Shown here: in pieces, positions 21,574 to 26,856 of the stretch
Position numbering within the stretch: the first letter of the stretch is position 1
Layout of the letters: each line of letters begins with the position of its first letter
From: Phascolarctobacterium sp.
Lineage (GTDB): Bacteria > Bacillota > Negativicutes > Acidaminococcales > Acidaminococcaceae
Length of the DNA: 64,000 nucleotides
Assembly: GCA_034086985.1 (NCBI GenBank)
Contig: JAXDZG010000002.1
Location: forward strand, 50,944-114,943
Direction: 5' to 3'
Made by a program: the position numbers and the translations under genes
The notes under the pieces: generated by a model
The model's database searches: none
What the model was told of the DNA's origin: nothing
What the model saw: the letters and a program-made list of their open reading frames with translations, nothing else

Positions 21574-21792
21574 TTACTGAATGGCTAGCTCCTTCATCAG
21601 CTCTTTACGATAAGTCTTATCTGTGATTACGCGGTCAACATCCTCATTTCTACCCATAGATTTAAGCTTGGTAAGTAAGGCAGCGAAGCGGTCTTCACCA
21701 ATTGCTAAACCACGAGCTTCACCAGTAGCTTCACCTTCGTTATAGCCTTCGGCTCTACTAATCTTCCGAACGAGATCTAAAGTTTTACCCAT
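21574..21792 (-). CDS. Candidate in-frame intragenic small protein (RpnS-like antitoxin, 72 aa)
   Basis: AAAGGAGAUG SD-like sequence 8 nt before in-frame ATG (MGKTLDLVRK...) inside the rpn ORF. Confidence 0.5.
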   Translation of the reverse strand: MGKTLDLVRKISRAEGYNEGEATGEARGLAIGEDRFAALLTKLKSMGRNEDVDRVITDKTYRKELMKELAIQ

Positions 21793-22425
21793 AGTCGTGT
21801 CATCTCCTTTAACTTTTCGCATAGCATCAGCCAAGACAGGATAGTGCATCTCTTCTGGCTTAGTACATTTAAAATCGCTAATTAATTTACCAATATCGTC
21901 ATTGCCGATATAGTTGTTATTTACATAGAGAATATGAGCCCTGTCCTCAAAAGGAATGCCTAGATTGGTGACAGTGCGTTCTATCGGATAGAGAGGCAAA
22001 TTGCGCTTCCATCTATCGCCAGTGAAAAAGATTACATATGTTGTAGGCAAAGCCTTAAAGTCAGCCTTGATGGGCAGATTATGTACATCAATAGAGCTGC
22101 TGTAATAGCGAGCACGTTCAGGGGTAGCACCGCTAGTCAGGTTTTGCACTTCAACATTATAGATGTTATTGTTATCATCCTTAGCGAGAATATCTAAACG
22201 CACAGACCTATAGCCATGATTCCTTAAGGGATACTCAGTTTTTGTGCTCTCAACAGTGAGCTTCTTGTCCTTTAAAAGTACATTGAGCAGAAGCTGGGAG
22301 CAAGCCTTTTCTTTAAAGACTTTTTTCAAGCAATGATGGTCTGTGAGCTTAGTCTCTTGGGCAATCTTTTTGGTAATAGCCTTGCGAACCTTTTTGTCGG
22401 ACAGGTCAAGTTTGATCATTTTCAT
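21574..22425 (-). CDS. Rpn family (PDDEXK_2) recombination-promoting nuclease / putative anti-phage toxin
   Basis: DHHCLKKVF, VRLDILAKD, NVEVQ, RARYYSS.ID, C-terminal EG..EG...G repeats. Confidence 0.88.
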   Translation of the reverse strand: MKMIKLDLSDKKVRKAITKKIAQETKLTDHHCLKKVFKEKACSQLLLNVLLKDKKLTVESTKTEYPLRNHGYRSVRLDILAKDDNNNIYNVEVQNLTSGATPERARYYSSSIDVHNLPIKADFKALPTTYVIFFTGDRWKRNLPLYPIERTVTNLGIPFEDRAHILYVNNNYIGNDDIGKLISDFKCTKPEEMHYPVLADAMRKVKGDDTTMGKTLDLVRKISRAEGYNEGEATGEARGLAIGEDRFAALLTKLKSMGRNEDVDRVITDKTYRKELMKELAIQ

Positions 22426-22590
22426 TATAACACGATCCTTTGCAATTTACTAGCGCTAGGGGTGGATTTTTGTAGGTGCCCGACCTACTATAGTCATAAT
22501 AGCACAAATAGTCAGATAAATCAAGCCTTAATAAGAAAATTTTTATATATTAGAAAATTACAAGAGCGTTTTGCGCTTCGAGGTACTACC

Positions 22591-25500
22591 ATGTCGATTT
22601 TTGACAGCTTCACCAGGAGGAACAGTTTAATAAAGACACTGCGCTTCAGGCTAGAGCCCATGTTTGGGACTAGTGAGCAGCTGGCAAAAATAGGCGTGCT
22701 GGAGCGCGATCAAGAGCGCAGCGAGAACTGGGAAACAGTGCGCGCAGTGCTGCGCCGCGTGGATGCGTCGTTTGTAGAAAAGGCGCTCACAGAAGAAGTG
22801 GATTTGGACTGGCGGCCGCTAGCAACAGCATTAAAAGCAAAGAATGCTGTATACGAAAATGAAAAAAATAATAGTAATGAGATAGAGCTGTCACAAGATG
22901 AAAGTGGCAAGAAAGCTTTGCTACAGTCAGAAAAGAATAGGGCTGAGATTAGCAAAGAGCTCGTAAAGCAGCAGGCAGAGATGCGCAAAGCAGTGGCGAA
23001 GCTGCTGACAAAGCATGGCGATTATAAGAACATTACCAATCCGACCAAAGCCATAAAAATGGCGGCGGAGGCAGTACAGAGTGATGCTGAAGCGCGAGCG
23101 GTGGCCCAGTATCTGCGCTTTACTACAGTGTTAACAGATTATTTTGCCCATAAAAAAGCCTATTTTGGCCATGAAGTGAGAAGGACAACAATCGCTTACC
23201 GCATCGTGCACGTAAATTTTCCTATCTATCTGGAAAACTTGCGCTTAATGAAGCAATATGCTCAGGCTGGGTTGGACTTACAAAATAAATTTATCTTTAC
23301 TTATTTAGAAATTAATGGCTACAACAAATGCTTGGTGCAGAGTCAAATCGATAGCTATAACCAAGCTGTTGGCCAAATCAATAAACAGCTGCGGCGGCTA
23401 TATGCCGAGCACAAGCTACCGGAAACTTTAAAAGGTGTGCCACTAAAGCTCAAGGCGCTGCAAAAGCAAGTGCTGAGCGTGGGCGAGGAAAAGCCCATAG
23501 AGTTTGCTAAATACGCGGACATGCAAGCAGCAGTGCAGGGCTTACAGGAAGCGCTGGCGCAACGGTTCAGTGGCTTAGAGCAAGCCTTCAGTCAATGTGA
23601 GGGAGAGCTGCAAGATGAGTACGCAGCTAAGCAAGAGACCGTAACAGAAGCCTCCAAGGCGCTGCTTTTTAGAGAGCAAGAGGTAGCGAGTATCGTCTCC
23701 ATTAAGGATTATCTAACGGCAGTGCTAGCCTTAAGGCGTTTCGTGAAAGGAGTGCTTCGTGAAGAGGTACAGCAATATAAAGGGCAAGCTCAGAGCTCTG
23801 AGAATGCTCTAGTAGCTGAAGATGCTTCGCAAGCTGATGCTGAGGCCAAGCAAAGGCTTTCTCTCGCCTGCAGTGAAGCCTGGGAAATATTAGCTAGTGT
23901 ACCTCAGCTATACGCCAAGGTGCGCAATTACTTAACCCGCAAGCCTTATAAGCAGGAGAAAATTAGACTCTTTTTTGACTGCGCTGCCTTTGGTAAGGGC
24001 TGGGATGTGAATAAAGAGGCCGCTTATTTAGTAAACTTGTTTAGGCGGGACAGTCATTACTATCTTGGCATCAGGCGCCAGGGAGCGAAAATAGATTTCG
24101 ATGCCATAGCGACTAAATGTACCGAGCAGGAGCCATGCTACGAAAAGATGGTCTACAAAGCCTTTGATTTCATCAAGGGCATGCCCGCTGTAGTCTTTTC
24201 CAAAATGATTTTGCAAAAATTTGTAGACGGTGCTAGTGAAGTGGTGCTAGAGGGTGAGCAATTCAGCCAGCCTTTAGTAGTAACCAGAGCGGATTTTGAA
24301 CAAAAATACTATGTAGAGAATGGTAAGCTGCGGGAGCGCGAGCCTGAGGATGTGCCCTATCTCAAGCAGTATCTAACTAAAACAGGGGATGAGGCAGGCT
24401 ATAAAGCGGCAGTGTCCCAGCGCATAGAGCTAGCCAAGCGTTTTATAAAAGCCTATAAAACCTTCGCCTTTTTTGATATGTCCAAGCTGCGAGCCACCCA
24501 AGACTATGACTCTTGGATAGAATTCATTACCCATGTGAACGAATTTACCTATGGCTTAAGCTGGCAAAAAAATTCCGAAGCAAGCCTAAAGCAGTTAGTG
24601 GAAAAGGGTGACTTGTTTCTATTTCGCTTGGAGAACCGCGACTTTATGCGCGATGCCAGCGATGAAGTAAGTGGGGACGAGCAAACCCAGCTGTGGCGCG
24701 CCTTGTTTAGCCAGCTAAATCAAGAAGATCGCATCCTGAAGCTTTTGGGCGGTGTGGAAGTGTACTACCGTCCGGCTTCCGCGCCTGCCAAGGTAAGTCA
24801 CAAGCAGGGCAGTGTTATCGTCAACAAAATAGACAGCGAGCATAATCCCCTGCCAGCGGAGCTCGTGCGTAATATTAGTCACTATTTAAACGGCAAAACT
24901 AAAAAGCTCTTACCAGAAGCGGCTCAGCTCATGGCCCAAGACAAAGTAAAATGGAAACAAGCGGCTCAGGATATCATCAAGGATAAACGCTATACCCAGG
25001 ACCAAATGCTAGCCCATTTTCCCATAGCCATCAACTATCGCTGTGCTAGCAACGATTATAGCTTCAACAGGGATGTGCGAGAGTTGCTGCAGGGGAATAC
25101 CGCAGTCAATATTTTGGGACTGCATTTGGGTGGCGACAATTTGGCTGAGGCAGTCATTCTTGACCAAAACGGCAAGCAGCTTTATGCCAAGGCTTATAAT
25201 CAATTCAATAATTATAATTACTACCAAGCTCTTGTATTGCGAGATGAAGCAAGGAAGCAGGCCCAACGAAACTGGCTGCAACAGCAAAAGATTAAGAATC
25301 TTCGCCAAGGCTTTATGGCAGCCCTTACTAATGAAGTGTGCAAGCTCATTTTAAAGTACAACGCCGTGGTTGTGCTGGAGGACTTCAGTAAGAACAAGGG
25401 TAGTAGGGGAGCGGCGCCCAAGCTCTATATGCAGTTTGCGCTGAATCTACTGCATAAGCTTAATTACTTAGTACTCAAGGAACGCGAGCCCATAGAGCCA

Positions 25501-25764
25501 GGAGGACTGCTGCAGGGCTATCAGCTTGCTCCCAAGGTAGTAAGCCTAGCGGGCTTTGCCAACCAAATTGGCTGCGTTCTTTTCGCCTTACCTAGCAATG
25601 GGGAGGGCGAGCCTGAGGACATGTCCGAGGCCTATTTATTGGCCTTAAAGGGCTGCCTCATGGTGCAGCGCATCCACCAAGCCAAGAGCTTGGATAAAGT
25701 AGATTTTATGCTAAAGCAAAAACAGTGGCTTGGCTTCCTCAAGGAGCGAGACTTCAGCTCCTAA
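22591..25764 (+). CDS. cas12a: Cas12a (Cpf1)-like protein, predicted nuclease-dead and lacking the Nuc domain; orphan, 1057 aa
   Basis: MSIFDSF...SLIKTLRFRLEP (WED-I), IAYRIVHVNFPIYLEN (REC1), YAKVRNYLTRKPY, GWDVNKE, LFLFRLENRDF, IIKDKRYT..HFPIAINY, NAVVVLE, GGLLQGYQL, AYLLALKG are colinear with AsCas12a; RBS GAGG precedes ATG 22591. Confidence 0.93.
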   Translation: MSIFDSFTRRNSLIKTLRFRLEPMFGTSEQLAKIGVLERDQERSENWETVRAVLRRVDASFVEKALTEEVDLDWRPLATALKAKNAVYENEKNNSNEIELSQDESGKKALLQSEKNRAEISKELVKQQAEMRKAVAKLLTKHGDYKNITNPTKAIKMAAEAVQSDAEARAVAQYLRFTTVLTDYFAHKKAYFGHEVRRTTIAYRIVHVNFPIYLENLRLMKQYAQAGLDLQNKFIFTYLEINGYNKCLVQSQIDSYNQAVGQINKQLRRLYAEHKLPETLKGVPLKLKALQKQVLSVGEEKPIEFAKYADMQAAVQGLQEALAQRFSGLEQAFSQCEGELQDEYAAKQETVTEASKALLFREQEVASIVSIKDYLTAVLALRRFVKGVLREEVQQYKGQAQSSENALVAEDASQADAEAKQRLSLACSEAWEILASVPQLYAKVRNYLTRKPYKQEKIRLFFDCAAFGKGWDVNKEAAYLVNLFRRDSHYYLGIRRQGAKIDFDAIATKCTEQEPCYEKMVYKAFDFIKGMPAVVFSKMILQKFVDGASEVVLEGEQFSQPLVVTRADFEQKYYVENGKLREREPEDVPYLKQYLTKTGDEAGYKAAVSQRIELAKRFIKAYKTFAFFDMSKLRATQDYDSWIEFITHVNEFTYGLSWQKNSEASLKQLVEKGDLFLFRLENRDFMRDASDEVSGDEQTQLWRALFSQLNQEDRILKLLGGVEVYYRPASAPAKVSHKQGSVIVNKIDSEHNPLPAELVRNISHYLNGKTKKLLPEAAQLMAQDKVKWKQAAQDIIKDKRYTQDQMLAHFPIAINYRCASNDYSFNRDVRELLQGNTAVNILGLHLGGDNLAEAVILDQNGKQLYAKAYNQFNNYNYYQALVLRDEARKQAQRNWLQQQKIKNLRQGFMAALTNEVCKLILKYNAVVVLEDFSKNKGSRGAAPKLYMQFALNLLHKLNYLVLKEREPIEPGGLLQGYQLAPKVVSLAGFANQIGCVLFALPSNGEGEPEDMSEAYLLALKGCLMVQRIHQAKSLDKVDFMLKQKQWLGFLKERDFSS

Positions 25765-25774
25765 ACAATATGTC

Positions 25775-25818
25775 AATACCTACTAGTTAGGCGAAGTATG
25801 TGTGTTAAAATTGTAGGC
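25775..25818 (+). CRISPR. Single degenerate Cas12a-repeat-like hairpin plus possible spacer (mini crRNA candidate)
   Basis: AATACCTACTAGTTAGGC vs canonical handle AATTTCTACTNNNGTAGAT, with compensatory T-A to C-G stem change; 11 nt after the cas12a stop; not a multi-repeat array. Confidence 0.45.
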
Positions 25819-25875
25819 TTGGATGCTTAAACAAAATGCTTTAAGACGGCCGCGAAAATTGTTCATAAAGACCAA

Positions 25876-25917
25876 TAAAAAACCGCTACACCCCAGATGA
25901 GTGTAGCGGTAATTTTT
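25876..25917. terminator. Bidirectional terminator between cas12a-like and fba
   Basis: ACCGCTACAC / GTGTAGCGGT stem with A-run before and T-run after. Confidence 0.8.
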
Positions 25918-25926
25918 ATGCGGTGA

Positions 25927-26856
25927 TTACAGTCTGTTGGAGCTGTTCAGCACGTCGCGCATCTTGTGAGCAACCATGTCTTGGATTGCTTGACGAGCGG
26001 GCTTCAGGTATTGACGAGGATCGAAATCGCCGGGGTTCTCTACGAAATGCTTGCGGATGGAAGCAGTCATAGCCAAACGCAGGTCGGTATCGATATTGAT
26101 CTTGCAAACGCCGAACTTGCCAGCGCGCAGCAGCATATCCTCGGGAACGCCTTGAGCGCCGTCTAATTTGCCACCGTACTTGTTGCATTCTTCAACGAAG
26201 GCAGGGATAACGGTGGAAGCACCGTGCAGTACCAGGGGGAAGCCGGGCAGCAGATTGGTGATTTTTTCCAGACGAGCAAAATCCAGCTCCGGTTTGCCCT
26301 TGAATTTATAAGCGCCATGGCTGGTGCCGATAGCAATAGCCAAAGAGTCGCAGCCGGTGCGCTCTACGAATTCTACTGCTTGGTCGGGGTCGGTGTAGGT
26401 GGCGTCCTTAGCAGCAACCTTAACAGCGTCCTCAACGCCTGCCAGCTTGCCCAATTCAGCCTCAACAACAACGCCGCGCTCGTGAGCATATTCAACTACA
26501 CGACGGGTCATTTCGATGTTTTCTTCAAAGGGATGCTTGCTGCCGTCGATCATAACGGAGGTGAAGCCGCCATCAACGCAGGCCTTGCAGATTTCAAAAT
26601 CTTCGCCATGGTCCAGGTGCAGGCAGATGGGCAGACCAGTGTCCTCAACAGCAGCCTCAACCAGCTTCATCAGGTAAATGTGGTTAGCATACTTACGAGC
26701 GCCGGCAGAAACCTGCAGAATCAGCGGGGATTTTTCGGCTTGGGCTGCAGCCACAATACCTTGGATGATTTCCATGTTATTCACGTTGAAGGCACCTACT
26801 GCATAGTGGCCTTCATAAGCTTTTTTGAACATTTCGGTAGAAGTTACTAAAGGCAT
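25927..26856 (-). CDS. fba: Class II fructose-1,6-bisphosphate aldolase
   Basis: GAFNVNN, LHLDHG, SVMIDGS, VEAELG, AIGTSHGAYK, VLHGAS, KINIDTD. Confidence 0.97.
   Translation of the reverse strand: MPLVTSTEMFKKAYEGHYAVGAFNVNNMEIIQGIVAAAQAEKSPLILQVSAGARKYANHIYLMKLVEAAVEDTGLPICLHLDHGEDFEICKACVDGGFTSVMIDGSKHPFEENIEMTRRVVEYAHERGVVVEAELGKLAGVEDAVKVAAKDATYTDPDQAVEFVERTGCDSLAIAIGTSHGAYKFKGKPELDFARLEKITNLLPGFPLVLHGASTVIPAFVEECNKYGGKLDGAQGVPEDMLLRAGKFGVCKINIDTDLRLAMTASIRKHFVENPGDFDPRQYLKPARQAIQDMVAHKMRDVLNSSNRL

Follow-up and report, generated by a model that had tools for sequence, protein, structure and literature searches.

A Nuc-less, nuclease-dead Cas12a clade of Phascolarctobacterium with a single conserved crRNA-like RNA encoded behind the gene

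The gene described here encodes a homologue of the CRISPR effector Cas12a which no longer has its DNA-cutting centre. It is located in a 64,000-nt stretch of DNA from Phascolarctobacterium sp. (assembly GCA_034086985.1, contig JAXDZG010000002.1, positions 50,944-114,943 of the forward strand), which is referred to below as the window and supplies all coordinates given without a locus name. The principal finding, beyond the ribonuclease (RNase) triad that the protein has kept, is a clade of such dead Cas12a proteins, lacking the Nuc domain, whose genes are each followed by a single conserved CRISPR RNA (crRNA)-like RNA predicted to lie in the 3' untranslated region (UTR) of the gene. The features of the gene and of the putative RNA are as follows.

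22591-25764, + strand: nuclease-dead, Nuc-less Cas12a homologue of 1057 residues (Pfam, phmmer, TIGR04330, AlphaFold2 (AF2) model)
24799-24993, + strand: WED-III RNase motif HKQGSVIVNK...IIKDKRY (translation, HMMER alignment, clade comparison)
25111-25134, + strand: degenerate RuvC-I motif ILGLHLGG, with Asp replaced by His845 (25123-25125)
25378-25380, + strand: RuvC-II Glu930, kept and invariant in the clade
25591-25620, + strand: junction, at residues ~1001-1010, of a missing Nuc-containing segment of ~195 residues (alignments)
25775-25792, + strand: crRNA-type 5' handle AAUACCUACUAGUUAGGC, 18 nt, stem CCUA/UAGG, with a predicted processing site at 25774/25775
25793-25806, + strand: fixed guide-like 14-mer GAAGUAUGUGUGUU, nearly invariant between loci
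25816-25851, + strand: 3' hairpin with outer stem GGCU/GGCC and inner stem CUUAAA/UUUAAG
25882-25910, no strand assigned: terminator-like hairpin lying between the RNA and the convergent gene fba (called on the - strand by the scan)

The Cas12a homologue and its clade

Translation is assigned to the Met codon at 22591 (MSIFDSFTRRNSLIKTLRF), from which point the N-terminus aligns with Cas12a, giving a protein of 1057 residues. The longest open reading frame (ORF; 22333-25764, + strand) begins 258 nt 5' of this true start and overlaps a divergent gene of the Rpn family, and automatic gene callers may over-extend the protein to 1143 residues by adding 22333-22590. When searched with phmmer against PDB chains the protein yielded Cas12a matches only (8kgf at 1.8e-108 and AsCas12a 5b43 at 6e-99), and Pfam detected RuvC_1 (3e-43) and REC1 (3e-20). 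TIGR04330 scored 453 bits against a cutoff of 300, such that the protein would be named Cas12a by NCBIfam, while for the AF2 model (mean pLDDT 84.8) the best Foldseek matches were AsCas12a structures, at a TMq of 0.71. By homology, judged from sequence and modelled fold over the WED, REC, PI and RuvC domains, the window protein belongs to Cas12a; the system does not have the hallmarks of type V-A, namely an active RuvC, Nuc, an array and adaptation genes.

The original prediction, made from the sequence of the window, held that the DNase had been lost, and this is borne out at several positions. The RuvC-I motif IDRGE of Cas12a reads LHLGG, with His845 at the position of the catalytic Asp, and the RuvC-III motif DADANGAY is degenerate throughout the dead clade; the RuvC-II Glu is retained. 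The segment covering AsCas12a ~1069-1266 (~195 residues) is reduced to ~9 residues, and Pfam NUC (PF18510) found no match on the window protein. Both the RuvC-I Asp and Nuc are absent from all 22 aligned clade members, the former being replaced by His, Arg or Tyr. Among the residues that read the protospacer-adjacent motif (PAM), the equivalent of AsCas12a K548 is retained (VNKE) and that of K607 is Ala (MPAVVF), while the S542 and N552 positions are altered, so the PAM may differ from TTTV.

A word-indexed search produced 24 short homologues (~820-1058 residues, 45-100% identity), the only source names among them being those of Phascolarctobacterium metagenome-assembled genomes (MAGs). Below them lies a gap in identity down to full-length Cas12a at ~30%, and on clustering at 50% the dead clade is reduced to one representative. 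At least 20 of the homologues are intact proteins of ~1000 residues which have diverged to 45% identity and share ~190 invariant columns. The next-best proteins in an exhaustive search, P0037 (1264 residues) and P0038 (1235 residues), carry Nuc together with an Asp to Asn change in RuvC-I and, on the basis of their sequences, look like intermediates. P0037 is encoded on a 14-kb plasmid-like contig (locus L147) together with Rep3, MobA/MobL, DnaB and Dam; no CRISPR array was found there, and the one repeat present, which is canonical, is followed by a sequence similar to the guide of the dead clade. No relatives of either the protein or the RNA were found in viral contigs, and a phage origin was rejected on those grounds.

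The RNA encoded behind the gene

Comparison of the flanks of eight loci revealed a nearly identical stretch directly past the stop codon, even where the proteins were only 45% identical. A single conserved element of ~80 nt is present in all 22 motif-bearing loci, 11-61 nt past the stop of the dead Cas12a gene and on the same strand, and variant RNAs occur in four further loci. Scanning public collections with the RNA core produced seven genome matches, all of them from Phascolarctobacterium MAGs, four metagenome matches and no viral match. The covariance model detects exactly one copy per locus, at 68-100 bits, and none elsewhere in the window. No Rfam family reached its gathering threshold, and over 25700-25950 only chance-level matches, with E values up to 10, were obtained. 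It had been proposed earlier that a downstream hairpin serves as substrate for the protein; the downstream region does emerge as the RNA partner, on the strength of its presence once per locus in 22/22 loci with scores of 68-100 bits, and its cleavage by the protein is predicted.

The canonical Cas12a handle reads AAUUUCUACU-loop-GUAGAU. The single repeat at the P0037 locus has such a canonical handle (AAUAUCUACUUAUGUAGAG), and relative to its UCUAC/GUAGA stem the outer U-A pair has become C-G in the dead clade, a compensatory change. The CCUA/UAGG stem is paired in 15/15 distinct sequences, and at L008 and L024 a U-A pair is changed to U-G. Taking all the RNA stems together, 95% of cells are paired, compared with 17-54% when the partners are slid. 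The 34 invariant columns of the alignment start exactly at the first A of the handle and the preceding base is variable; this boundary of conservation lies 4 nt 5' of the stem, the position where Cas12a cuts its repeat (25774/25775).

The guide that follows has the consensus GAAGUAUGUGURUU and is separated from the 3' hairpin by a variable AU-rich linker. The hairpin itself appears to have an extended basal stem at L002, L004, L016, L017 and L022, though not in the window. An alternative RNAalifold structure, in which the guide pairs with the 5' part of the handle, was discarded, given that a G to C change at L008/L024 and a U to A change at L023 break it without compensation. A small ORF within the RNA looks unlikely, as the loci differ in linker length by 1-13 nt, mostly by numbers that are not multiples of three. 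Two MAGs each carry a pair of diverged paralogues with their own RNAs, L011 and L014 in HGM14017 and L013 and L017 in SARD11_bin.025, and the guides of paralogues from the same genome differ at just one or two positions. At the P0037 locus, GCGAAUAUGUUUAUGAAUAAUUUUU occurs 5 nt after the canonical repeat and resembles GGCGAAGUAUGUGUAUUGAUUUUU of the dead clade, a hint that the fixed guide predates the loss of Nuc, although so short a match may have arisen by chance.

In the window, the stop codon (25762-25764) lies 10 nt before the handle, the distance from stop to handle is 11-17 nt in most loci, and no promoter-like site was predicted between 25213 and the RNA. Given the 10-nt gap and the lack of a predicted promoter, the RNA is most simply considered part of the mRNA, from which it would need to be released. 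The hairpin at 25882-25910 may terminate the + strand transcript as well, since its stem is followed by T-rich sequence in that direction too.

A separate perfect hairpin, GTAGGT-GCCCG-ACCTAC, occurs at 22472-22490 (+ strand), where the divergent promoters of the Rpn gene and the dead cas12a gene are expected. The eight bases with which the handle core begins recur in the 3' arm of this hairpin together with two further bases (ACCTACTA), and the hairpin was found only in the window and in the close relative L001.

The RNase site and the possible role of the locus

Counting codons from the Met at 22591, H737 is encoded at 24799-24801, K746 at 24826-24828, K797 at 24979-24981 and Y801 at 24991-24993. 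In the HMMER alignment (E ~1e-99) these residues fall on H803, K812, K863 and F867 of the AsCas12a chain and, allowing for the 3-residue tag borne by the AsCas12a PDB chains, they correspond to native H800, K809, K860 and F864. No gap occurs between the four aligned residues, which are spaced by 9 and 60, so that the placement of the triad originally predicted, with Tyr at the F864 position, is confirmed; the match reflects homology in the aligned sequences and is no chance pattern. In FnCas12a (H843/K852/K869) and AsCas12a (H800) these residues constitute the pre-crRNA RNase site, which acts independently of RuvC, and the two lysines of Cas12a contact the 5' end of the crRNA.

Comparison across the Nuc-less homologues, which had been suggested as a check on the site, gave a mixed outcome. 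K746 and K797 are invariant in 22/22 sequences and the 9/60 spacing is constant, but His at position 737 is present in only 17 of them, the other five having Tyr. The Tyr homologues form two lineages which are not sisters in a neighbour-joining tree and both have retained the RNA. All three codons vary synonymously (CAT/CAC, AAA/AAG and AAG/AAA, respectively). Of 158 other full-length Cas12a cluster representatives, those nearest to the dead clade, 157 carry the His, and its constraint is therefore weaker in the dead clade than in ordinary Cas12a. Within the same set, the RuvC-I Asp is missing from 12 representatives, P0037 among them, every one of which retains H-K-K, indicating that retention of the RNase after loss of the DNase is recurrent. 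The Asp replacements among these 12 are N, S, C, I or T, and naturally RuvC-mutant Cas12a proteins may be fairly common.

That the protein uses an RNA, as was argued at the outset, is supported by the occurrence of the RNA in 22/22 loci, by conservation that begins at the cut site and by the synonymous variation of the RNase codons. The more specific argument, that selection still acts on guide processing, is upheld in part: the boundary of conservation, the short gap without a predicted promoter, the invariant lysines, the synonymous codons and the H-K-K of the 12 RuvC-I mutants favour it, but the His to Tyr changes in 5/22 homologues and the three pseudogenes described below do not. The lysines lie in motifs conserved in all Cas12a proteins (VNK and DIIKDKRY), so that their invariance does not distinguish catalysis from a role in structure or RNA binding. 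Judged from these patterns, the window protein very probably binds the downstream RNA and is likely to excise it from its own mRNA, with self-processing apparently dispensable in some lineages.

We somewhat favour, on comparative evidence, the reading that the protein is a DNA-dead Cas12a with a crRNA-binding WED/REC region and the full RNase triad, which would employ a single crRNA-like RNA from its own 3' UTR and bind nucleic acid without cutting it. The gene and RNA would be transcribed together, as suggested by the 10-nt gap, the lack of a predicted promoter and the shared terminator. The protein would then bind the handle and cut 4 nt 5' of the stem (25774/25775), releasing one guide per mRNA, a step proposed from homology and from the point at which conservation begins. 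The resulting complex would bind a fixed complementary nucleic acid, most probably DNA, and leave it uncut, with a single specificity because the RNA is fixed. Binding without cutting is our best guess because a short guide running into a hairpin, a dead nuclease and the lack of an array together match the pattern seen for TldR and dCas12f. Like these proteins and Cas12m, the complex may act as a repressor or as another site-specific factor.

More tentatively, and as a proposal that we would not yet call likely, the Phascolarctobacterium clade may constitute a chromosomal, fixed-specificity RNA-guided factor with a self-excising 3'-UTR guide, which binds one conserved site and controls host genes or a mobile element. 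If so, a single guide would come from each mRNA, and its excision may exert feedback on expression; the large Cas12a scaffold would thereby have been exapted for the first time, in parallel to TldR and dCas12f, and the same guide-like sequence may already exist in a plasmid-borne relative that is RuvC-dead and Nuc-bearing. The target, once found, would reveal what a gut anaerobe controls or keeps out by means of a hard-wired guide.

Several results weigh against the favoured reading. No guide target was found in the 275 kb of loci and the window, near the gene or in viral contigs. Allowing up to 3 mismatches, the only match in the window was the RNA gene itself; up to 2 mismatches yielded none in the 275 kb of loci, and the plasmid-like locus L147 contained none. 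In the 600 nt upstream of each gene and the 500 nt downstream of it, guide matches were no better than those of shuffled sequence, and at least 120 14-mer matches in viral contigs were attributed to chance, since they showed neither PAM enrichment nor extension of the match. The change of K607 to Ala, together with those at S542 and N552, suggests that DNA recognition may be altered or lost. The His to Tyr replacement in five of the 22 RNA-bearing homologues implies either that catalysis is not indispensable or that Tyr can substitute. Guide positions 2, 4, 5, 10 and 14 differ between lineages, the other positions being constant, and covariation in the RNA is modest, with only two compensatory pairs, because the sequence barely varies. 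Finally, there are three pseudogene copies, in all of which the RNA motif is intact:

L012, 1574-4585, - strand: pseudogene with two in-frame stops
L021, 12208-14150, - strand: pseudogene with a ~240-residue deletion and a frameshift
L019, 757-1410, - strand: pseudogene with a 5' truncation

The strongest alternative, which we nevertheless judge rather unlikely, is that H/K/K have been kept for folding of the WED domain and for holding the 5' end of the handle, with the RNA arising from its own promoter or being trimmed by a host RNase. The two lysine motifs are among the most conserved in all Cas12a proteins, and it is the catalysis-specific His that has become Tyr in two non-sister lineages, where the Tyr codons vary (TAT/TAC), suggesting that an aromatic residue is the requirement at this position. 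Moreover, at L008 and L024, both of the Tyr lineage, the RNA lies 61-69 nt past the stop and behind a separate hairpin. However, at L006 and L007, also of the Tyr lineage, the gap is 14 nt, so gap length is independent of whether His or Tyr is present, and the gap at most loci is too short to hold a promoter that lies outside the coding sequence. The His is also kept in 17/22 homologues with CAT/CAC variation, and conservation starts exactly at the canonical cleavage position.

It is improbable, in our estimate, that the protein originated in a mobile element as a decoy or competitor, soaking up crRNAs or occupying a fixed site to the advantage of a plasmid, with the chromosomal copies descended from it. 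Its nearest full-length relative, P0037, with Asp changed to Asn and Nuc kept, does reside on a 14-kb plasmid-like contig without an array, where the single canonical repeat precedes a sequence like the fixed guide, and the copies at L004, L005 and L022 lie in regions resembling mobile elements. At L004 (6200-9941) and L005 (3964-7705), both of the P0017 lineage, a sigma-70 family gene precedes the dead cas12a gene in the same orientation and is apparently split into r2-r3 and r4 parts by a TnpB (OrfB_IS605) insertion, and the surrounding region, with an SNF2 helicase, an M23 peptidase and many genes that lack annotation, has the appearance of a mobile element. Housekeeping genes border most copies, however, and the absence of relatives from viral contigs also speaks against such a decoy, while the divergence of the handle from the canonical stem argues for a private RNA rather than the capture of host crRNAs.

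The genes around the dead cas12a gene bear on a third alternative. In the window its divergent upstream neighbour is:

21574-22425, - strand: Rpn/PDDEXK_2 family nuclease

In the related loci, too, the gene directly upstream and divergent almost always belongs to a toxin-antitoxin-type module, the family of which differs by locus: Rpn/PDDEXK_2 in the window, L001, L002 and L007, RelB in L006, ParE-Phd in L008 and L023, HEPN-MNT in L009, HicAB in L024/25 and BrnTA in L026. Because loci with the same downstream genes carry different modules (L006 versus L007, and L008 versus L024), the upstream position evidently turns over. The paralogues P0006 and P0022, from L002 and L007 of the same sample, are 49% identical overall but hardly differ over the first ~36 residues, and the two loci also resemble each other upstream, in the intergenic and PDDEXK_2 regions. 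Recombination or gene conversion at the 5' end is thereby suggested and may be the way in which the upstream cassettes are exchanged. Many members of the 90% cluster of P0006 are fragments. No CRISPR arrays were found in the window or in 27 loci, no Pfam matches to cas1, cas2 or cas4 occurred among the neighbours in any locus, and tnsB, tnsC and tniQ were absent from the called neighbours.

The frequent presence of a toxin-antitoxin or Rpn gene divergently upstream, and the precedent of crRNA-like regulators beside cas12a (10.1101/2023.03.10.532045; PMC10120712), would be in accord with a local regulator of the CreR/CreA type, whose guide would pair in part with a promoter close by, its own or the one serving the toxin-antitoxin module. 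This is very improbable, given that the flanks of no locus held a better-than-chance match within the intervals searched, that none was found in the 275 kb with up to 2 mismatches, and that the neighbours vary between loci while the guide is constant. A decaying type V-A remnant without present function, to which the pseudogenes L012, L021 and L019 and the many fragments in one 90% cluster might point, is highly unlikely in view of the at least 20 intact homologues at down to 45% identity with ~190 invariant columns, the synonymous variation of the catalytic-site codons and an RNA that is almost invariant over the same evolutionary distance.

Comparison with known systems

With the Cas12a of type V-A systems, exemplified by AsCas12a, the proteins share the fold and the domain order of WED, REC1/2, PI, RuvC and bridge helix, as well as the WED-III RNase triad, and their RNAs share a handle with the 5' AAU..CUACU motif and a short stem, with the guide placed 3' of the handle. 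Unlike Cas12a, the dead clade lacks Nuc, the RuvC-I Asp, an intact RuvC-III motif, an array and cas1/2/4, and carries Ala in place of K607; it has instead one fixed RNA, predicted to lie in its own 3' UTR, whose 4-bp handle stem (CCUA/UAGG) is 1 nt shorter.

Single repeat-like units that lie by cas12a and give rise to crRNA-like RNAs with a non-immune role have been described in type V-A systems as standalone repeat units and CreR (PMC10120712; 10.1101/2023.03.10.532045), and in these respects they are similar to the arrangement considered here. They occur beside active Cas12a with arrays, mostly upstream, and CreR pairs with a cas promoter (PMC10120712; 10.1101/2023.03.10.532045). In the dead clade, by contrast, the effector is inactive, the unit lies downstream and no local target was found.

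RNA-guided DNA binding without cutting, which is proposed here for dead Cas12a, is also a property of the type V effectors Cas12c, Cas12m and Cas12k (PMC12669027). These belong to other subtypes and have kept arrays, with Cas12k additionally associated with Tn7 genes, whereas neither arrays nor Tn7 genes occur at the dead Cas12a loci. The 2025 CRISPR classification lists inactivated V-C, V-M, V-O, V-P, V-K and Cas12b3 but no such dead Cas12a (PMC12669027), and the literature searched, which was partial and gives no proof of novelty, contained no account of a Cas12a that lacks Nuc and has a fixed guide.

Each of the nuclease-dead relatives of Cas12 known from nature, TldR, dCas12f-sigmaE, Cas12m and Cas12k, has brought to light a new way in which RNA guidance is used. 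The present clade offers a naturally dead and compact Cas12a (~1000 residues) with a private, diverged handle, and a natural design in which a guide is embedded in the 3' UTR of an mRNA and probably excised by the encoded protein. It also provides a natural experiment on the RNase site, since His and Tyr versions carry the same RNA.

The closest analogues of the arrangement are TldR and dCas12f. TldR and dCas12f-sigmaE (PMC10705468; PMC13472631) are likewise dead, RNA-guided proteins of the RuvC family which lack arrays and are adjacent to a single conserved RNA with a short guide, and by analogy with them dead Cas12a appears to have been exapted for a fixed specificity. In such systems the guide is complementary to a conserved genomic target, usually close to regulated genes; no target for the dead Cas12a guide was found in the 275 kb of loci and the window. 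The clade descends from the large Cas12a proteins, its closest relatives, and not from TnpB or Cas12f; its guide lies 3' of a crRNA-type handle rather than at the end of a long omega or guide scaffold; and, in contrast to both of these analogues, it has retained an RNA-processing site of its own.

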